Part shown: one piece after another, positions 114-29,917 of the stretch
Position numbering within the stretch: position 1 is the stretch's first letter
How the letters are laid out: each line of letters begins with the position of its first letter
Origin: a virus
Lineage: Duplodnaviria > Heunggongvirae > Uroviricota > Caudoviricetes
Reading direction: 5' to 3' (one strand)
Length of the DNA stretch: 35,248 nucleotides
Virus record (IMG/VR): IMGVR_UViG_2563366961_000002
Coordinates: 1-35,248 of that record
The notes under the pieces: generated by a model
Databases searched by the model: none
What the model was told of the DNA's origin: nothing
The model's input: the letters and a program-made list of their open reading frames with translations, nothing else
Translations under genes and position numbers: made by a program

Positions 114-315
114 ATGTCGTAGGTCTGACTCACCCATTTTTTGGGCGTTGGTGTATAATCCAGCGCCTTTGTCAATCAATGGTGGCTCAGGCGGGGGCTT
201 CTTCGGAAGCGCCGGTATCCTTCAGAGCCGGTTACGCCAACCCTGTCTGGGCTACCACCAGCGAAATTGGCGTTTCCGGTGGTAGCGTAACCTGCTATCT
301 GAAGGAGGCTGCCAC

Positions 316-2333: not shown

Positions 2334-2697
2334 AAATGCAGAAATGGCGCTTAGCTCCGCAATCGGAGAGCAGGTGGCAAAGATTGCTGGTGCTGTGTGG
2401 ATTCATAACCTTCATTCTACTGGTGAAGAGAAAATGGCAATTCAGACGCCAGAGGGACGCACCATTACTACATCTCTGAAGCCGTCAGATGTTTGTGATC
2501 TGATTTGCGCATTCATGTACCCAGCAATGAGGACTGTCCACGGCGATAAGTGGAAACTTGCGACAACCGCTGAATTTGATATGTGGCTAAACAATGATGG
2601 CATGCTGACTGATTACGGAATAACCAAGTGGCAGATGCTGGTTAGCCATATCGCAAACGCTATAGACCACGTGGGGTACGGTGATGCGAAACATTGA
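2326..2697 (+). CDS. hypothetical protein (123 aa)
   Basis: Start overlaps upstream stop; end overlaps primase start. Confidence 0.5.
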   Translation: MRENAEMALSSAIGEQVAKIAGAVWIHNLHSTGEEKMAIQTPEGRTITTSLKPSDVCDLICAFMYPAMRTVHGDKWKLATTAEFDMWLNNDGMLTDYGITKWQMLVSHIANAIDHVGYGDAKH

Positions 2698-5440
2698 TCT
2701 TATCCGTCAGGTTATCAGTGCGTCTGAAAACAACTGGCCTCATGTGCTGGGCTGCCTGAACATAAATGTCCCTGACTCTCCGCGCCGTCATGCTCCCTGC
2801 CCTGCATGTGGGGGCAAAGATCGATTCCGGTTCGATGACAACGGGCGCGGTAGCTTCATCTGTAATCAGTGCGGCGCTGGTGATGGGCTGGATTTAATTA
2901 AACGCGTAAATAACTGCGACACAACAGAGGCGGCGCTTCTTGCCGCTGATGTTCTGGGTATTGATTACCGGACAACGGAAACACCAGAAGCCACCAGCCA
3001 GAAACGGGAACAACTGGAAACCGAGCGCCAGCGACGCGAACAGGAGCGCCTGAAAAGGGCAGAGAAGGACGAACAACAAAGACGGGATACGTTTTCCCGT
3101 CAGTTTGATGACATGCGCAGAAAGGCTGTAAACGGCAAATCTGATTATCTGGTTGCGAAAGGGGTAGGTGATTTTACATTCCCCGTGTTGCCCGATGGAT
3201 CTCTGTTGCTGGCGCTGGTGGATAAATCCGGCGCAGTCACAGCAGCACAGACTATTACATCACATGGTGAAAAAAGACTCCTGACAGGTTCAGCAAAGCG
3301 GGGGGCATATCACGCCATAAACGCGCCAGAAACAACACAGAGCATCTTAATCGCAGAAGGGCTGGCAACGGCATTATCTGCCCATTTAATTCGTCCAGAG
3401 GCGCTGACAGTGGCGGCGATTGATGCCGGGAACCTGTTATATGTCGCCCAGGTACTGCGGGATAAATTTCCTTCAGCACAAATCATCATTGCTGCGGATA
3501 ACGACCACAGCGAAGGAAGACAAAACACGGGGAGAATAGCAGCAGAAAAAGCAGCTTTATCTGTTTCTGGATGGGTGGCATTACCCCCGACAGATCACAA
3601 AGCAGACTGGAATGATTACCACCAAAAACACGGCATTAAATGCGCCACAGAAGCGTTCAATAAGTCAATGTACCAACCACAGGGTAATGGCGTGAAACAT
3701 GAGCCACAGACCATTGAGGGAAGCGATTTTAAGGTTATGGATACCGACCCACTGAAACCAAGAATAGAAAGCCGCGAGGATGGTATTTATTGGGTATCTC
3801 CGAGAGCTGACAGCCAGAGTGGAGAAATCATCAATAACGAAAGCTGGTTATGTTCTCCGTTAAGCGTTATCGGTACTGGCAGAGACGATAAAGACCAGTA
3901 TCTCATTCTTCGCTGGCTGTCGTTTGGTTCTGAAACGCCGACAACCGCTGCCATTCCACTGGCTGATATTGGTGAACGTGAAGGATGGCGCACACTTAAA
4001 GCTGGTGGGGTAAATGTCACGACCAAAAGCAGCCTCAGAGCAATACTGGCAGACTGGCTACAACGCAGTGGCTCTCGTGAATTGTGGCGTGTTGCTCATG
4101 CCACTGGCTGGCAATGCGGAGCGTACATCATGCCTGATGGGGAAATCATCGGAACACCTGAAAATCCTGTGCTGTTCAGCGGGAGAAGCTCAGCCGCAGC
4201 CGGATATACCGTCTCAGGGAGCGCGAAAAGCTGGCGTGATAACGTGGCGCGTCTGGCCTTTGGTAACTATTCAATGATGACCGGGATCGGCGCAGCACTG
4301 GCAGCGCCATTGATTGGGCTGGTGGGCGCTGACGGGTTCGGCATTCATTTCTATGAGCAGTCGAGCGCAGGTAAGACCACCACGGCAAACGTGGCGAGCA
4401 GCTTATACGGCAACCCTGATTTACTGCGGCTGACGTGGTACGGAACCGCGCTGGGGCTGGCAAATGAGGCCGCCGCCCACAATGACGGACTAATGCCGCT
4501 TGATGAAGTTGGTCAGGGCGCTGATCCTGTCAGCGTTTCACAGTCTGCCTATGCGTTATTTAACGGTGTAGGGAAACTGCAAGGCGCTAAAGATGGTGGA
4601 AACCGGGATCTAAAACGCTGGCGTACAGTGGCAATCAGCACCGGAGAAATGGATTTAGAAACATTTATCGCTACTTCCGGGCGAAAAACCAAAGCCGGGC
4701 AACTGGTGCGACTGCTGAATATTCCGTTGAGTAAAGCAGTACGCTTTCACGATTACCAGAACGGAAAACAGCACGCAGACGCACTGAAAGACGCTTACCA
4801 GCATCACCACGGCGCGTCCGGGCGTGAGTGGATTAAATGGCTGGCAGACCACCAGCAACAGGCTATTAAAACCGTTCGTGACTGCGAAAGCAGATGGAGA
4901 AGCCTGATCCCATCCGATTATGGTGAGCAGGTTCACCGTGTAGCCGCGCGATTTGCCATTCTGGAGGCCGCATTGTTGTTAGGCGAGGTTGTAACAGGCT
5001 GGGATGCTCAGACATGCCGTGATGCGATACAGCACAGCTATAACGCATGGTTGCGCGAGTTCGGCACAGGTAACAAAGAGCATCAGCAGATTATTGAACA
5101 AACGGAGGCATTTCTTAATGCCTATGGGCTTAGCCGTTTTGCACCATTTCCATACAGCCCGGCAGATTTGCCCATCAAAGATTTAGCCGGATACCGTCAG
5201 CGTGGAGAACATGACGAAAGCCCAATGATTTTCTACACATTCCCGGCCACATTTGAAAAGGAGATCGCATGTGGTTTCAACGCAAAACAGTTTGCTGAAG
5301 TGTTGAAAAAAGCCGGGATGCTAACCCCACCAAACAGCGGTCGTGGATACCAAAGAAAATCACCACGTATTCAGGGACGACAAATAAACGTTTATGTACT
5401 CAATTACCAGCCAGGAGATTATAACTCATCTGAAGAATGA
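2681..5440 (+). CDS. satellite/island primase (Zn-ribbon + Toprim + C-terminal P-loop domain, P4 alpha-like)
   Basis: CPACGG..CNQCG zinc-ribbon; Toprim Glu (ILIAEG) and DxD (IIIAADNDH); P-loop-like SSAGKTT; 919 aa. Confidence 0.85.
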   Translation: MMRNIDLIRQVISASENNWPHVLGCLNINVPDSPRRHAPCPACGGKDRFRFDDNGRGSFICNQCGAGDGLDLIKRVNNCDTTEAALLAADVLGIDYRTTETPEATSQKREQLETERQRREQERLKRAEKDEQQRRDTFSRQFDDMRRKAVNGKSDYLVAKGVGDFTFPVLPDGSLLLALVDKSGAVTAAQTITSHGEKRLLTGSAKRGAYHAINAPETTQSILIAEGLATALSAHLIRPEALTVAAIDAGNLLYVAQVLRDKFPSAQIIIAADNDHSEGRQNTGRIAAEKAALSVSGWVALPPTDHKADWNDYHQKHGIKCATEAFNKSMYQPQGNGVKHEPQTIEGSDFKVMDTDPLKPRIESREDGIYWVSPRADSQSGEIINNESWLCSPLSVIGTGRDDKDQYLILRWLSFGSETPTTAAIPLADIGEREGWRTLKAGGVNVTTKSSLRAILADWLQRSGSRELWRVAHATGWQCGAYIMPDGEIIGTPENPVLFSGRSSAAAGYTVSGSAKSWRDNVARLAFGNYSMMTGIGAALAAPLIGLVGADGFGIHFYEQSSAGKTTTANVASSLYGNPDLLRLTWYGTALGLANEAAAHNDGLMPLDEVGQGADPVSVSQSAYALFNGVGKLQGAKDGGNRDLKRWRTVAISTGEMDLETFIATSGRKTKAGQLVRLLNIPLSKAVRFHDYQNGKQHADALKDAYQHHHGASGREWIKWLADHQQQAIKTVRDCESRWRSLIPSDYGEQVHRVAARFAILEAALLLGEVVTGWDAQTCRDAIQHSYNAWLREFGTGNKEHQQIIEQTEAFLNAYGLSRFAPFPYSPADLPIKDLAGYRQRGEHDESPMIFYTFPATFEKEIACGFNAKQFAEVLKKAGMLTPPNSGRGYQRKSPRIQGRQINVYVLNYQPGDYNSSEE

Positions 5441-16029: not shown

Positions 16030-18440
16030 AACACGGAAAACCTTAAAATTAATTATTGGGGTATTTAAGGGTATTTTCAGGTGATTTAAGGGTATTAAAC
16101 TTGATTTAATTGATTAAAATATAAACAGATAGTTGTGTATCTTATTGATTTATAAGGTTATTTTTAAATAAAGGTAAATAAAAAATAAATAGCCATAAAT
16201 AGCTATAAATACATCTAAATACCTATATCCCTTCCCTTATGGCTAGATTGCGAGAGGTGCTTAACGCGATTTTCAGCGCCCCCCGATCTGGAAAATCCAG
16301 AATCCCCAAATATCAGCAAGGAATTTTCTTGCGTAATCAACATCGTTTTTACCTATTAAATCATTACACAGAAAGCCTTTCTGTAATGTCTCTCACTAAA
16401 CTTTCACTAAACACGAGAATGATCGGTTTTATGTCGGATCAGATGCTAGAAACAGCACCACGTCTCACAAGGACTGTAAGCGATGAAACCAGTGTTTATG
16501 CGGGTGCAGGTCAAAATATAGGCCAAAATCAATTTAACATAATAAACGTAATATGCACTAAGGAATACATAGAACGCCTTGAGTTGATGTATCAGGGGGG
16601 AAAAATGATGGATTTTTTACGTAGGAGCACGAGAGGGCTTCTGTTGACTTTTGTATGCTATGAAACATAATTAAAGGTTTTTTTGTTTTTATTGTGTGAT
16701 GTAGTGGATTACACAGGGGAATAGATTAAATGGTGTTCTGTTTATACAGGTTTATTTGTTAGATCAACAATTTGGCATTTCTAAACAGATGTTTGAACGT
16801 TGCCAAATGTCTTGACAACACAAGAAAAGGGCTTGCTATGCCACGCATTACACGAAATAAGGCTGTAAAAACAAAATAAATTTTAAAATTTGCACAAACG
16901 AGAAAACTCGTTAAGAAACAAGCAGAACAATTTTTAGCCAACAATTTCTGATGGTGCTCTGTAGGCCGCACTACACAAGGATTTGCGAAAGTGATGTAAA
17001 AGTGAAGAAAGTAAGAATTGCACTTTTAAGCTACTTTTCATTGAATTTTTAGTATGGAATTACACAGGAATAAGTTAGGGATATTCTATGATTTACACAG
17101 GGAATATAGGGGATTATGGCACACACATAGAAAGGCATTACACAGAGTGAGTGCTATGTGATGATTGGTAGTAACGGTAGGTCATAGTGAGCTAGGGGGT
17201 AGGTCACTGTGAACTACAATAAGACTATTAATAAAACTATATTAGATTATTAATTAGATCATAATAATAATATTCTTTATATCTATATATATGATCTTTT
17301 GCCTTCCGGCGTTAGCTTCACTCTCTGGCAAGCAGCCTTACTCCGCTACCTTTCGGGCTTCGTGGCTGGCCCGTTCCGCTCACACCGAAAGCAAAGCGTT
17401 ACTTTCTTCGTGTAACTTCGTTGGCGGTAACGCCCACGAAGAAATCTATTGCGCTGTGCGCAGTAAGAGTAATCACCTAACCAATCATACTGATTGCTTA
17501 TGTGTTAACTCTCTCTAACTCTTAATTACCCTCCTACATTTAATAACTCTGTTATTCTCTGTAGTTGTGTAATTACTCGAAGAGAGAGCGGCTAAAGCTC
17601 AATTACACTCTGCTTTCCTCGTGTAATTTCACTAAGCCTCAATACAATTTCACTTCCTACATTCTGTAGTCGTGTAATTGTTTTCGGTGGAAAAGCCAGA
17701 GGCGACACCGAAAGAGAATTCTGATCTTATTAATCTTATCTATCTTAGTTAATCTTCTTACTTATCTTACTTACTTTATCTACTTTATTATTAATAATAG
17801 CTTTATAAGCTCTCTGTGTAGCTCTCTGACGCAAGAAACAGCATTCAGGAAGGGAATCACCTTAGAAAAGGTGTTCTTTGCGTCATAATGTGTTTTATGA
17901 AGGATTCAGAGGTGTTTCATAACAGGAATGTATAGAGAATACTTTAGGTAATTAAAAATAAGGGGTCTAAATGCTTCTCTAACAGCATTAAGCAGGGTAG
18001 GGAATGGAAACGCATTGCCTACATATAATAAACTCACTACAGGGCTTTACAGGGCGTTTTATAAAGTGACTCTCTGTTTTATATCTACAATCACCTTTTC
18101 ATATACCTAACAAATACAAAATAAGCCCCTTAAATAAGCCTCTGGCGAGCTAAACAGACATTACATAAGAGAATGTATTGCTTTTATCAAAACTTCGTTA
18201 GAACGCGTTTTAGAGCGTTTTAGCGGATAATGAAGAATAGCACTACACAGAAGAGCACGAATTGCCAAGACAAATTATAACATGCTGAAAAAGATCGATT
18301 TTTTCGAAAAGGGTATTGACAAATGTTTCTTTATATGTAATAATAGGTATTAGAGGGACAGAAAAACATTCTTCTCTAAATAATCAAAATCAATGCACTT
18401 TGAAGCCGTCAGGCTTGCAAGGTGTTTTATTTCTTTTAAC
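16030..18440. promoter_or_regulatory. AT-rich non-coding origin/control-like region with iterated motifs
   Basis: No convincing ORF; repeated TTTAAGGGTATT, ATAAATAG, YATTACACAG (both orientations), GGTAGGTCA and TTATCTT runs. Confidence 0.4.
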
Positions 18441-18457
18441 TGAATAAGGAGTTTTTT

Positions 18458-18646
18458 ATGAAATGGTTTACACCGGAGCACGTCGTAAAGGCATTTAAAA
18501 AAGGTGAGCTTACACGCCACCAAATAGTAATGAATCGTAATATGGCAAGGAGTCGAGGTTATCCAGAGCGAGCAGCTTGCTTCAATGAAGCACTCAAGAT
18601 TATTGATGAACTAAGAAAAAATGAAAAAGAATCTGAAACAGAGTAA
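18458..18646 (+). CDS. hypothetical small protein (62 aa)
   Basis: ATG 8 nt after AAGGAG; first gene after the non-coding region. Confidence 0.5.
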   Translation: MKWFTPEHVVKAFKKGELTRHQIVMNRNMARSRGYPERAACFNEALKIIDELRKNEKESETE

Positions 18647-18836: not shown

Positions 18837-18889
18837 TTTTTATCACCATAGTAGCGCCATAGAGCGTGATTACATCAAGGAGATTTTTA

Positions 18890-19582
18890 ATGATTAACCA
18901 ACTAACTTTTACAAAACACTATGACACGTTTGATAATATATCAAAGATTTATTCTGATAAATTCCCTCAAGGAAAAGATTTAGATCTATTACATATTGTG
19001 CTTTATTTTCGATTCCTTAGTTATCAGGAAAACAACCTTAATTGTTATGAAAGTCACGAAACATTAGCTAAGATTTTTAAGTCTTCACCATCAACAATTA
19101 AACGTAAGATAAACGATCTTAAAGAGATGGGATTATTAGAAACATCCCCACATCCTGATCCGTATATTTCATCTTTGATTTACAATGCTCTCCCTCTCAC
19201 AGATGCACATATTACTCCCCCAGGAGAATCATCACTCTCTGATCTTTCTGAGGCAGAAGAAGCACAGGAACAACCTAAAGGCCATAAACAGCCTTCTTTT
19301 GATGTTCTTGATGATGATTGGGATACGCCTTTACCCTGGGAGACGGAAGAAACACCTGTTTCATCAAGTGAAAAGGTAGCTAATGATAATGAGGAGGATG
19401 TGTTAGAGAATTTTGCCTCTCTTATCATCCAGGAGAAACACAAAAGAACAGGAGGGGCATCATTTATAGAATTTGCAAATTCACTAGCTTGTAGATACGG
19501 GCTAAAACGACCAAATGGTATTGAGGCATATTTTTCTAAGCATTACCCAAATGTATACGAAGACTTTGATATTCCCTTTTAA
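18890..19582 (+). CDS. winged-helix protein, candidate replication initiator
   Basis: ATG after AAGGAG; wHTH-like LAKIFKSSPSTIKRKINDLKEMGLL; acidic C-terminal half. Confidence 0.5.
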   Translation: MINQLTFTKHYDTFDNISKIYSDKFPQGKDLDLLHIVLYFRFLSYQENNLNCYESHETLAKIFKSSPSTIKRKINDLKEMGLLETSPHPDPYISSLIYNALPLTDAHITPPGESSLSDLSEAEEAQEQPKGHKQPSFDVLDDDWDTPLPWETEETPVSSSEKVANDNEEDVLENFASLIIQEKHKRTGGASFIEFANSLACRYGLKRPNGIEAYFSKHYPNVYEDFDIPF

Positions 19583-23027: not shown

Positions 23028-23921
23028 ATGTTAGAAATTAACACTTCTAAAATTAAGAACACAGTAACATTTAGTGTAGATAAAGACAGCTTGAAAAAAG
23101 CGAAAGACTCTATTACAGGCTTAAAGGAATTTGCAGAGAATATCAAGCCAGCTAAGTTAAGGTTTGATAATGTCACTAAAGGCTATAAGAAAGCACAAAG
23201 TGAAGTAGACAAGATTGCTCAACAGAAAGCTAAAGCCGAAAAACAGAATCAAAGAGTACAAGCTGCCGCAGCAAGAGCACAGGCAAGGCAACAGCAACAA
23301 ATAGCAGCACGTAAAGAGAAAGCAGAATTAAAACTCCTCGATGTGTCAAGCTCTATCAGTGCAATGCACCGTCTCTCTGTAGCTGAACAATACAAAGCTA
23401 TTGCACAGGCTAGAGAAATTGCCCTCCAATATGAAAGAGGCGCTATTAGTCTGGCACGTATGAATAGCCAGATGAAACGCTTACAACAGCAACAACGTAA
23501 GATTAATGGCAACAGAAAAGCACAATTAGCCCCCGTTAAGGGAGGATCAGGGAATTCCGCCACTATGGGCGCTCTGTTATTTGGAGGCGCTACGGCTGCT
23601 GCTGGCGTGATGGCTGTTAGTAAAGCGTCGGAGTTTGTTAGTAGCAGTTTCGCTAACGCAGAGACCCAAGGGGAGCTAATCCAACGTGCAAGGCTTGGCG
23701 GTGTAGACGTTAACCAGATGTATAATATTACAGAATGGGCGTATAGAAACGGCGTTGACTCTATGATGGGTGATCAAGGGGCTAGGAAATACCTGGATCA
23801 GATGAAAGATGTTAGGGAACGTGCCGCAAAATCCTACAGTGAAGCTGAATTGGTGAAAGACAAGAAAACCGGAAAATCTGAATGGAAAGGCGGTGATAAT
23901 GCTATTAATGAACTTCTAAAC
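23028..23921 (+). pseudogene. N-terminal fragment (298 codons) of a 609-aa coiled-coil protein disrupted by IS2
   Basis: Reading frame continues in phase across the IS2 target duplication to 25258-26193. Confidence 0.7.
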
Positions 23922-23932
23922 TGGATTTGCCC

Positions 23933-24838
23933 CTATATTTCCAGACATCTGTTATCACTTAACCCATTACAAGCCCGCTGCCGCAGATATTCCCGTGGCG
24001 AGCGATAACCCAGCGCACTATGCGGATGCCATTCGTTATAATGCTCGAACGCCTCTGCAAGGTTCTTTGCTGCCGTTAACCCGTCTGGTTTGGGCATGAT
24101 ACTGATGTAGTCACGCTTTATCGTTTTCACGAAGCTCTCTGCTATTCCGTTACTCTCCGGACTCCGCACCGCCGTGTTCTTCGGTTCAAGTCCCAACATC
24201 CGGGCGAACTGGCGTGTTTCATTAGCCCGGTAGCATGAACCATTATCCGTCAGCCACTCCACTGGAGACGACGGAAGATCGTTGCCGAAGCGGCGTTCCA
24301 CCGCTCCCAGCATGACGTCCTGTACTGTTTCACTGTTGAAGCCGCCGGTAGTGACCGCCCAGTGCAGTGCCTCACGATCACTGCAGTCCAGCGCGAACGT
24401 GACACGCAGTCTCTCTCCGTTATCACAGCAGAACTCGAACCCGTCAGAGCACCATCGCTGATTGCTTTCTTTCACGGCCACTCTGCCTGTATGTGCCCGT
24501 TTCGATGGCGGTACAGCAGGTTTTCGCTCAAGCAACAGCGCATTCTGGCGCATGATCCGGTAAACACGTTTGGCATTGATCGCAGGCATACCATCAAGTT
24601 CTGCCTGTCTGCGAAGCAGCGCCCATACCCGACGATAACCATACGTGGGCAGCTCTCCGATAACATGGTGTATACGGAGAAGCACATCCGTATCATCAGT
24701 GTGACGACTGCGGCGGCCATCCATCCAGTCATCGGTTCGTCTGAGAATGACGTGCAACTGCGCACGCGACACCCGGAGACAACGGCTGACTAAGCTTACT
24801 CCCCATCCCCGGGCAATAAGGGCGCGTGCGCTATCCAC
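23933..24838 (-). CDS. insD: IS2 OrfB (InsD) DDE transposase
   Basis: 301-aa ORF overlapping orfA end; retroviral-integrase-like catalytic domain. Confidence 0.85.
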
Positions 24839-25161: not shown

Positions 25162-25252
25162 CTGCTCTCCAATGACTAGTCTAAAAACTAGTATTAAGAC
25201 TATCACTTAAATAAGTGATACTGGTTGTCTGGAGATTCAGGGGGCCAGTCTA

Positions 25253-26193
25253 TAAACATCGGTGTTATTAACAAAAGCGACCTTAAAAAATTTGCTGATA
25301 ATCCGGCTGGATTAATTTCTAAGGCTGTTAATGGAATGATGAAAAAAGGGTTTTCAGACTCCCAAATTGGACAACGTTTAGAAGACCTGGGCGATGATTT
25401 GATGCTTACGTCAAAATATTGGCAACGTTCCGTTAAAGATGTACAAGAAAGTATTAATCAGCAAAAAGCCTCTGGAAAATGGCTAACAGAAACACAGCAA
25501 GACTCTATTGTTAAATTCAGAGAACTAAACAGACAGCTTTCACAGCTTTCTGATGCAAGACAAGTAGCATTCGTAGACGGCTTTATGAAATCTCTCGATC
25601 CAAAAGTAACGGAAGAGTTTATGAAAAACCTTTCTAATCTCACTCCGTATTTTACGAAGCTGGGAGAAGCTACAGGAAGTCTCTTTGAAGCTATTATGAA
25701 GATTGTAAACTGGTTTAATCGTAATGATGATAAGACAGATGCTATTCAGAAAAATATGGGTGATGCACCGCCATTAAGCAATGAAGGGATGAAACAGAAT
25801 CTTTCTAATCTCGTTCCTAATCAATATAAAGGCGCTGGCACTGCAACAACTACACCTGATAATAGTCATTCTCTCTTTAACACAATTAAGGGATTGCTTT
25901 TCGATGATAATTCTTCTGTGTCAGATGTAAAAATGTCAGTCAATGAAGCACCGATAACCAATCTCAAACAGGGTGCTTTAAATAATCTTGCAATGACAAC
26001 TCCAGCTTATAATTTATCTCCTGTGTTTAATCTGAATCCTACATTTGAAGTGGTAACAGAAGTGCCGCTAACTATCGAATCAGACACCGGACGATTGAGC
26101 GATTATGTGGATTTTACAGCGAGAGCAAGTCGGGATAGCTTCTTGAAATCATTAACATTAACCAGCTTATCAGGACAATCCAACGGCGGGTAA
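25253..26193 (+). pseudogene. C-terminal fragment of the IS2-disrupted 609-aa protein
   Basis: In phase with 23028-23921 through the duplicated TAAAC. Confidence 0.7.
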
Positions 26194-29669: not shown

Positions 29670-29917
29670 TGCATTGAATGATAAAAATGGCGCAAATACA
29701 GCGCCATTTTTATAGGTTAAAAACATTGTTTTTAACTTTCTGATGCAGATAGCCAGTGAGTACATCGCGCTACTTCAGGATGCTGTAGATCCGGAGAACA
29801 CTATAGAGGAAGAGGCATTGTTGCTGGCAGATGGAAGAAGTTTCGGGGTTTGTTATCCCTGAAAAACGAGGCCCCGCGATTATAGCTGGCGGGGCAGTGC
29901 AATTAATTATTGCATAT

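Follow-up and report, generated by a model that had tools for sequence, protein, structure and literature searches.

A chain of covarying hairpins beside an iteron-type replication origin in satellite-like elements of enterobacteria

The GC-rich islet and its element

We have analyzed a GC-rich islet at positions 17290-17720 of a 35,248-nt stretch of viral DNA (Caudoviricetes; IMG/VR record IMGVR_UViG_2563366961_000002), which as a whole is referred to here as the window. A preliminary description of this DNA had marked the islet as a candidate non-coding RNA (ncRNA). The islet is a real, evolutionarily maintained chain of about 10 hairpins over about 420 nt. It is part of an origin region in which the local order is iterons, an AT-rich stretch containing GATC, the islet, an early promoter and the rep operon. 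This origin setting, which the preliminary description missed, is the main clue to the function of the islet. About 2.5 kb around the islet are without annotation in RefSeq. The features of the origin region in the window are listed below.

16363-17146 (+): group of 5 or 6 direct ATTACAC(A/G) copies lying left of the origin
17176-17216 (+): two iterons GGTAGGTCAnnGTGAnCTA, to which Rep presumably binds; direct-repeat family D9
17217-17295: AT-rich region, presumed DNA unwinding element, with GATC at 17257-17260 and 17293-17296
17296-17382: left end of the islet and core, with near-invariant columns in E. coli-type copies
17301-17310: small hairpin GCC-ttcc-GGC within the left islet end
17333-17337 with 17364-17368: core helix CAGCC/GGCTG, around CCG (17343-17345)/CGG (17354-17356); covaries between genera
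17403-17445: three-way junction, closing stem 17403-17412 with 17436-17445
17413-17423: junction hairpin 1, TAAC-ttc-GTTG
17424-17433: junction hairpin 2, GCG-gtaa-CGC
17450-17462: hairpin TGCGC-tgt-GCGCA, nearly invariant in most types
17474-17504: hairpin H4, CACcTAAcCAATCA-tac-TGATTGcTTAtGTG, with conserved pyrimidine-pyrimidine mismatches
17509-17588: long hairpin H5, with closing stem CTCTCTCT/AGAGAGAG, AATT/AATT, CTACA/TGTAG and an apical GTTAT hairpin
17567-17573, 17621-17627 and 17672-17678: inverted ATTACAC copies within islet hairpins
17590-17638: GGCT (17590-17593)/AGCC (17635-17638) around AATTACAC-n12-GTGTAATT (17600-17627), helices 1-3 of covariance model A11
17644-17681: hairpin H8, a partial duplicate of H5, repeat family D12
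17683-17713: TTTCGGTG/CACCGAAA around the conserved GCC-aga-GGC (17695-17703); helices 4-6 of A11 cover H8 and this stem
17717-17815: second AT-rich block, with CTTATCT/CTTACTT repeats (families D4 and D5)
18316-18344 (+): early-operon promoter TTGACA-17-AATAAT with an upstream TG, from a promoter scan
18866-19582 (+): Rep gene, coding for an O-like initiator with an HTH_36 domain

The window is chromosomal DNA of E. coli. Over 1.7 kb around the islet it is 99.9-100% identical to NZ_OZ547117, where the islet region lies within an island adjoining the tRNA-Thr gene thrW. The islet belongs to an integrative, satellite-like element of about 13 kb, of the thrW/CP4-6/Sp1 type. In the relative L059 the element is bordered by a tRNA-Thr gene and by an integrase that is IntF-like, and in strain 02E060 it consists of thrW, a 52-aa open reading frame (ORF), about 3 kb that are unannotated, an operon of 12 genes and a leftward integrase. 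Products of the operon include a 62-aa protein, an Arc/RHH-like protein, an O-like HTH_36 initiator, a gpE-type major capsid protein, a Dit-like protein and a 613-aa tape-measure-like protein; no terminase, portal or primase was recognized among the genes of the element.

Matches to 700 nt around the islet were found in 507 of 5426 complete E. coli genomes, with at least 80% query coverage in 411. These matches are all chromosomal, lie at up to six places per genome and concern about 8-9% of the genomes; at least one Shiga-toxin-type strain (L059) is among the genomes that carry the islet. Contigs with homologs of the capsid gene display the same synteny in Citrobacter, Klebsiella, Cronobacter, Dryocola, Enterobacter, Serratia and Sodalis. 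Synteny of this kind over seven genera, with neither terminase nor portal, suggests that these are not decaying prophages but an undescribed satellite family that is functional. In a profile search the islet itself was found in 6 of the 9 relatives searched, and was not found in Serratia, Sodalis and one Enterobacter locus. Neither megablast nor blastn (E <= 0.01) revealed any similarity of the islet to 50,697 phage and 72,556 plasmid records, and among 2.9 million viral contigs the 18- and 20-mers of the core occurred only in this element family and in no helper-like phage contig.

Conserved structure of the islet

The islet proper (17296-17716) has a GC fraction of 0.451, with 0.543 in its part 17296-17470, against 0.127 in the left flank (17217-17295) and 0.212 in the right flank (17717-17815), which bears out the sharp contrast in composition that had first been noticed. 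Folding z-scores were computed relative to dinucleotide shuffles for each strand separately. The 431 nt at 17290-17720 gave z = -6.46 on the + strand and z = -7.97 on the - strand with RNA parameters, none of 100 shuffles folding as well, and z = -7.12 and -9.38 on the two strands with DNA parameters. The GC-richest 176 nt of the islet are only marginal by themselves (z = -1.8 and -2.0); thus much of the folding signal comes from the hairpins at 17470-17716.

The islet does not code for a protein. The 75-aa ORF at 17291-17518, which the preliminary description had found unconvincing, has no Pfam match, and near-identical copies differ within it by 1-nt indels that break the frame (GGCTTCG-TGG versus GGCTACGTTGG; GGCC-CG versus GGCCTCG and GGCCCCG). 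On these two grounds a protein-coding reading is ruled out. Conservation of the type expected for a protein was not seen either, as the frame is not preserved among homologs.

The inverted repeats from which the proposal of a structured RNA had started are all present: CTTCGTGG (17358-17365) with CCACGAAG (17434-17441), GCGTTAC (17396-17402) with GTAACGC (17427-17433), TGCGC-tgt-GCGCA (17450-17462), and CGGTG (17685-17689) with CACCG (17706-17710); CACCGAAAG occurs twice, at 17383-17391 and 17706-17714. Two of these four pairings nevertheless differ from those that the homologs support, and CTTCGTGG/CCACGAAG and GCGTTAC/GTAACGC have to be replaced. In the homolog-supported closing stem it is TTTCTTCGTG (17403-17412), and not the distal CTTCGTGG, that pairs with CACGAAGAAA (17436-17445), while GTAACGC is part of the hairpin GCG-gtaa-CGC.

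A plain MAFFT alignment was too poor for RNAalifold. Three covariance models (A7, A10 and A11) were therefore built on hand-drawn structures, and 16-21 diverse copies were realigned to them. Pairs changed on both sides number 23 of 36 in A7 (17319-17462), 25 of 33 in A10 (17451-17598) and 12 of 30 in A11 (17590-17710), or 60 of the 99 base pairs in total. The proportion of cells that are paired is 94.6% in A7, 93.4% in A10 and 92.8% in A11, against 23-39%, 26-44% and 21-43%, respectively, when the 3' partner is slid, although the first three percentages are inflated because the alignments were fitted to the model structure. In none of the three alignments was the observed covariation score reached by any of 500 shuffles, and the double changes are too numerous for a model-fitted alignment to explain. 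From this comparison of sequences we conclude that compensatory change has kept the hairpins intact in six genera. The conserved structure that the preliminary description anticipated is thus borne out by abundant compensatory change.

When each segment between anchors was folded separately, the same hairpin architecture was obtained in all E. coli subtypes, with different stem sequences. The E. coli core, GGCAAGCAGCCTTACTCCGCTACCTTTCGGGCTwCGtTGGCTGGCC, shows few point substitutions and 1-nt indels among 22 aligned E. coli-type copies; its helix is CAGCC/GGCTG, in place of which Cronobacter has TGACC/GGTCA and Citrobacter has TGTCC/GGACA. All types have the three-way junction, though its sequences differ; both sides have changed in 12 of the 14 pairs that make up helices 4-6 of A7, and the minimum-energy fold with DNA parameters recovers this covariation-supported junction. 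The hairpin TGCGC-tgt-GCGCA is missing in the variant L035, and its counterpart in the Citrobacter and Cronobacter relatives is GCGCCGTGTGCGC, the loop of which is longer. Changes on both sides affect 10 of 12 pairs of H4 (helices 2-4 of A10) and 14 of 17 pairs of H5 (helices 5-8 of A10). The outer GGCT/AGCC helix is invariant, and hence offers no test of covariation. The best supported parts in the window are the core helix, the three-way junction, TGCGC-tgt-GCGCA, H4, H5 and H8.

Some parts of the islet are specific to its subtype. An internal duplication of about 105 nt (H5/H8) characterizes the window subtype and is represented by a single copy in L005, L025, L027 and L039. The AT-rich block at 17717-17815 is an insertion of the window-type islet; it is absent from L002- and L003-type loci and from the other genera.

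Two further structural candidates were rejected. RNAalifold proposed a long-range helix between CTGGC (~17328) and GCCAG (~17697), but Citrobacter is without the 5' partner and yet keeps GCCAGAGG, a sequence conserved in nearly all types, and the GCCAT of Cronobacter is uncompensated. The GGTTCGACC core of Klebsiella, Dryocola and Enterobacter had a tRNA-like appearance; ARAGORN found no tRNA or tmRNA-like gene at the islet in the window or its relatives.

Origin setting and possible function of the islet

An exact search with 18 and 20 nt of the core retrieved 8 viral and 42 metagenomic loci, all of this element family. In all of these an AT-rich stretch of about 70-80 nt with GATC directly precedes the islet, and is itself preceded by 4-6 direct repeats. 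The direct repeats belong to at least 8 unrelated families, examples of which are GGTAGGTCAnnGTGAnCTA (the 2 window copies), CCTAGGAAATGAnTTCC, GATACCCCTATCAA, CCCCCACAGAATTCTGTTA, GATATACGGGAAAAACCCGTATG, AGGCACTATACCTGAGGGGG and CTGTGACGnnnCGTCACA. Downstream Rep proteins were clustered at 85% identity and the repeats tabulated per locus for 41 loci; the 11 Rep clusters correspond almost one-to-one to the ~8 repeat families, with L018 as an exception. Because the Rep cluster matches the repeat family, the direct repeats are iterons and the AT-rich stretch is likely the unwinding element. The islet, with its near-invariant core, accompanies every Rep/iteron type. In all E. coli types and in the Citrobacter, Klebsiella, Cronobacter, Dryocola and Enterobacter relatives, no more than a few bases separate its start from the final GATC of the AT-rich region. 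In the window this GATC (17293-17296) lies within GATCTTTTGCCTT, which is similar to the 13-mer of oriC.

The region therefore has the properties of an iteron-type origin: direct repeats near a rep gene, which lies 1.65 kb downstream of the iterons; repeats specific to the initiator (41 loci, L018 excepted); and an adjoining AT-rich unwinding element, in the window and in all relatives. The Rep protein was identified by its matches to Pfam PF13730 (E = 1.1e-5) and to PHROG 270, 'replication initiation protein' (E = 1.1e-9). No DnaA box TTATNCACA was found with up to 1 mismatch in 15976-18558, a feature that is not universal among iteron origins.

The window has 2 iterons, as opposed to 4-5 in its close relatives L009, L011, L012 and L014, and in L012 and L014 two different modules of iterons plus AT-rich region stand in tandem ahead of one islet. 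From these differences in copy number and the tandem modules, the origins of this family have evidently been rebuilt by recombination; the origin of the window may be weakened. The Klebsiella relatives L063 and L064 have a gene for a Dam-family methylase (2394-3083) directly upstream of the GATC-rich origin region.

Our leading interpretation, although a tentative one, is that the islet is a cis-acting origin module, a single strand of which would fold into priming or primosome-loading hairpins, by analogy with ssiA and ssiB of the IncQ plasmids. Rep bound to the iterons would melt the AT-rich stretch, and as unwinding spreads rightward one strand of the islet would become single-stranded and snap into hairpins. 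These would resist coating by SSB and act as single-strand initiation (ssi) or primosome-assembly signals for a priming or helicase-loading machinery that is not specific to Rep, either host DnaG or PriA or a factor of a helper phage. DNA synthesis could then start beside an origin that has no recognizable DnaA box. The islet would be the Rep-independent half of the origin that faces this machinery, and the genus-specific cores would reflect the partner factor. All steps from melting onward are what we infer. The proposal would explain four features of the islet: its position directly beside the unwinding element, its lack of a promoter, its strictly Watson-Crick complementarity, and its retention through exchanges of Rep and iterons. 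As in an ssi, stable hairpins stand beside the origin (DNA-parameter z of -7.1 and -9.4, with covariation).

Several known systems offer precedents for parts of this arrangement. The oriV of IncQ plasmids consists of iterons, an AT-rich region and hairpin-forming inverted repeats; with this layout, that of RSF1010/R1162 is the closest working precedent. In RSF1010 priming takes place on two 40-nt hairpins, ssiA and ssiB, that are exposed when the initiator melts the origin (PMC8567376). Mini-hairpins with GNA or GNNA loops are found in the G4 origin, ssiA and the N4 promoters, that of ssiA being of the GAA type (PMC13037366); junction hairpin 2 of the islet is similar to it. The IncQ origin differs in having only two 40-nt hairpins, served by the plasmid primase RepB', whereas here there are about 10 hairpins in 420 nt and no recognizable primase gene; nor does the islet have sequence similarity to any plasmid record searched.

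The G-sites of the G4 complementary-strand origin and of the region downstream of R1 oriR, and the phiX174-type n' sites near the ColE1 ori, are strand-specific clusters of hairpins, 55-140 nt long, that recruit DnaG or PriA on SSB-coated strands and conserve structure more than sequence. The islet likewise consists of hairpins adjacent to an origin, but it is about 420 nt long and without similarity to phage or plasmid records, and its priming role is only proposed. The folded structure is also conserved over the sequence in attC sites and in the single-strand origins of rolling-circle plasmids, which are exchanged as cassettes and keep extrahelical or mismatched bases. Mosaic swapping of hairpins and conserved mismatches in the islet parallel these sites; they serve integron integrases or HUH-type Rep proteins, however, and the Rep found here is O-like, with theta-type iterons.

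The origins of iteron plasmids and satellites (RK2 oriV, P1 oriR, SaPI/PICI ori, PIME oriV) have Rep-specific direct repeats beside an AT-rich element with 13-mer-like or GATC motifs (PMC4980987; bioRxiv 10.64898/2026.01.12.698999). Rep-specific repeats beside an AT-rich element are seen here as well; the islet origin has no DnaA box. RK2 has a GC-rich segment beyond its AT-rich region. We know of none among these origins that has been described with a 400-nt array of covarying hairpins.

A number of observations weigh against a role of the islet in priming. To our knowledge its ~420 nt and ~10 hairpins make it several times larger than any ssi or primosome-assembly site (40-150 nt). It has no sequence kinship to known ssi by blastn (E <= 0.01) in the phage and plasmid collections, a search that would cover G4-type phages and ssi-bearing plasmids if these are in the collections. 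The indicators of the folding strand conflict, with lower z-scores on the - strand in 9 of 10 types and GNRA-like loops on the + strand. The inflation of the pairing percentages mentioned above also has to be taken into account. In Serratia, Sodalis and one Enterobacter strain the gene order is kept and the islet is absent, so that the islet is not indispensable for this type of element. Finally, the element presumably corresponds to prophage Sp1 of O157 Sakai, which has been described as a degraded prophage for which no excision, circularization, replication or packaging was detected (PMC2669165).

A doubtful but serious rival to the priming module is a new structured ncRNA of about 400-450 nt, transcribed from a weak, helper-dependent or read-through promoter. 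It would act in cis or trans on replication, as a primer or R-loop RNA like ColE1 RNA II or in copy control, or in the sensing of a helper. The islet would then be an undescribed large ncRNA at the origins of widespread enterobacterial satellite-like islands, one that primes or gates replication or reports a helper phage; we regard this too as rather unlikely. The architecture of the islet, with about 10 helices and a three-way junction that covary, resembles that of a large RNA, and RNA-parameter z-scores go down to -8 to -10. The loop of junction hairpin 2 on the + strand is GTAA, GAAA, GTGA, GAGA or a GAA triloop while the stem varies, so that GNRA-type tetraloops are kept in one hairpin. 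Unpaired stretches (GGCTAArGC, TTCACyAAGCC and GCCAGAGG) are conserved, and E. coli copies have a near-invariant core. In 9 of 10 types the - strand, which is G-rich, folds better than expected from its composition; a leftward transcript running toward the origin would fit this. Two types, L002 and L035, have weak leftward promoter-like sites on the right of the islet, at a distance of about 160 nt.

The search for signals of such an RNA was largely negative. The Rfam scan recommended in the preliminary description (Rfam 15, gathering threshold) gave no relevant match in the islet region of the window or of eight relatives, and at E <= 10 it gave only two chance miRNA matches (E = 0.9-9) in 16600-18500, both outside the islet. 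Sigma-70-like sites were scanned on both strands of 15 representatives (12 of them scannable), and no positionally conserved promoter that would transcribe the islet was found on either strand. The sole positionally conserved promoter across types and genera is that of the early operon, found in 13 of 15 representatives; it is situated on the right of the islet, about 160-290 nt away in most other types and about 660 nt away in the window. The window scan detected no terminator-like site at either edge of the islet. The literature searched on O157 prophages, small RNAs of enterohemorrhagic E. coli, satellites and integrative mobilizable elements makes no mention of the block and holds no expression data for the locus. 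Folded non-coding regions of several hundred nt that adjoin a start of DNA synthesis are known, as in ColE1 RNA II and the ori transcript of lactococcal phage c2. In these systems a defined promoter points toward the origin, and neither Rep nor iterons exist in ColE1, whereas here no conserved promoter was found, and iterons and Rep are present.

The pairing itself, the most telling of these observations, also argues against a diverged RNA family. Among 1485 paired cells, 1384 (93%) are Watson-Crick, 30 are G-T (14 events) and 16 are A-C (13 events). Wobble pairs, at 1-2% of the cells, are thus rare in the helices, without strand bias and about as frequent as A-C. In diverged RNA families G-U usually makes up several per cent of the pairs, and this on no strand but the transcribed one. 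Many of the double changes are transversion swaps, for example AU to UA or CG to GC. Junction hairpin 2 is apparently inverted in L068, its loop being TTTC as against GAAA in L029; because this loop is reverse-complemented, it looks as if whole palindromes were replaced or inverted at the DNA level. The conflict between strand indicators counts against an RNA as well. Of the original proposal of a candidate ncRNA, the conserved structure with covariation and the non-protein pattern stand, and the ncRNA itself, with no Rfam match, conserved promoter or terminator, is not established. Since the sequence-based tests of membership failed, we assign the islet to no ssi or RNA family.

It is improbable that the inverted repeats are sites for proteins on duplex DNA or cruciforms, such as a cos or pac site recognized by the terminase of a helper, a site at which the small recombinase encoded nearby would bring about partition or multimer resolution, or ATTACAC operators. 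The helices are symmetric and Watson-Crick only, a gene for a small tyrosine or serine recombinase lies 1-2 kb upstream in most relatives, and an element with capsid-, tape-measure- and Dit-like genes and no terminase needs some packaging signal. ATTACAC is enriched, its copies being direct on the left side of the origin and inverted within the hairpins: 9 of its 13 window copies fall inside 16363-17678, the chance expectation for the whole window being 4.3. The motif is restricted to the window islet subtype, however, and the hairpins of L003-type relatives are without it; it may represent a DNA-binding site of that subtype alone, overlaid on the hairpins. Each hairpin moreover has its own sequence, so that complementarity is conserved and not a repeated motif. 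The mismatches within stems are strand-asymmetric: single mismatches on the + strand are pyrimidine-pyrimidine in 22 of 36 cases by one count, and in the covariance-model alignments 31 such events compare with 11 purine-purine events. This asymmetry argues for a single-stranded form over duplex protein sites. Against a packaging site in particular, the core 18- and 20-mers were absent from helper-like phages among the 2.9 million viral contigs, and nothing similar was found in the 50,697 phage genomes; alignment to lambda cos, tested because of a resemblance to cosB (TTCTTCGT..TAACTT), scored 20, versus a null of 19.1 +/- 2.2, which is at chance level.

It is hardly credible that the islet has no function and is the remnant of a decayed gene or a GC-rich patch that arose by chance: the 75-aa ORF and its 2.5 kb of unannotated surroundings could be taken in this sense, but no family matches the ORF, near-identical copies differ by 1-nt indels that interrupt it, and the idea is contradicted by compensatory conservation in six genera and by presence in 411-507 of 5426 E. 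coli genomes.

Whichever reading is preferred, the islet is an iteron origin's unusually large, covarying hairpin module, undescribed in the databases and papers searched and with no entry in Rfam. At least five enterobacterial genera besides E. coli carry it, yet RefSeq leaves it unannotated; the compact element family whose replication origin it marks has hitherto been treated as cryptic prophage debris. If the islet is a platform for priming or helicase loading, it would be an unusually elaborate, Rep-independent origin accessory, and these satellites would plug interchangeable initiator modules onto a common module that faces the host. If it is an RNA, it would be a new large structured RNA, to be added to the short list of large bacterial and phage ncRNAs whose biochemistry is unknown. 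The covariation data supply a structure model under either reading.

Neighboring sequences and related loci

The loci L061-L072 share a gene order: a leftward tyrosine recombinase of 183-205 aa, about 2 kb of non-coding DNA, the rep operon, a 120-aa protein, a gpE-like capsid protein, a tape-measure-like protein of ~620 aa, and then the Dit-like gene and integrase. The Dit-like gene is present in most of these loci and absent from those of Klebsiella, Serratia and Enterobacter; an integrase with DUF6538 is found in all but Serratia and Sodalis. A P4-like island neighboring L072 contains an int-alpA RNA motif (RF02996, 45.3 bits) at 13652-13719 of that locus.

The tape-measure-like gene of NZ_OZ547117 (613 aa when intact, phrog_16051 E = 1e-54) is disrupted by IS2. 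The window carries the same two tape-measure-like ORFs, 23028-24008 and 25225-26193; with this gene split as in NZ_OZ547117, the window copy of the element is defective.

On the left of the window there is a P4-like satellite fragment, followed by P22-type ejection genes, and these are separate from the element of the islet. The P4-like fragment is a second, unrelated satellite in the same island. It starts with a C4/CI-type antisense RNA (Rfam RF01695, 79.9 bits) at 175-262 (+), and its ORFs extend up to 5440; one of them, of 919 aa (2681-5440), is annotated in matching genomes as a TOPRIM/DUF927 protein. Outside the integrase end of the island, a full-length IS009 RNA (RF02111, 193 bits) lies at 29675-29875 (+), between homologs of yagU and ykgJ.

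To the left of the origin, a 143-aa ORF at 16239-16670 (+) has no Pfam or PHROG match; its 3' end overlaps a promoter-like TTGACT-16-CATAAT and a terminator-like hairpin. Directly left of the iterons in many loci, among them L002 (5700-5760), L003 (5620-5760), L029 and L036, is the 3' end of a helix-turn-helix frame (...VSRATIYRWVK), annotated only in L003, as a 20-aa ORF, which resembles the remnant of a resolvase- or AlpA-like gene. On the other side of the islet, TTACAGnnCGTTTTA occurs four times in 18047-18429, between the islet and the first gene of the operon and around the early promoter. It is also found in L002, L003, L063 and L065, and a copy is present even in the Serratia relative that has no islet; the RHH or 62-aa proteins, both small, probably use TTACAGnnCGTTTTA as their operator.

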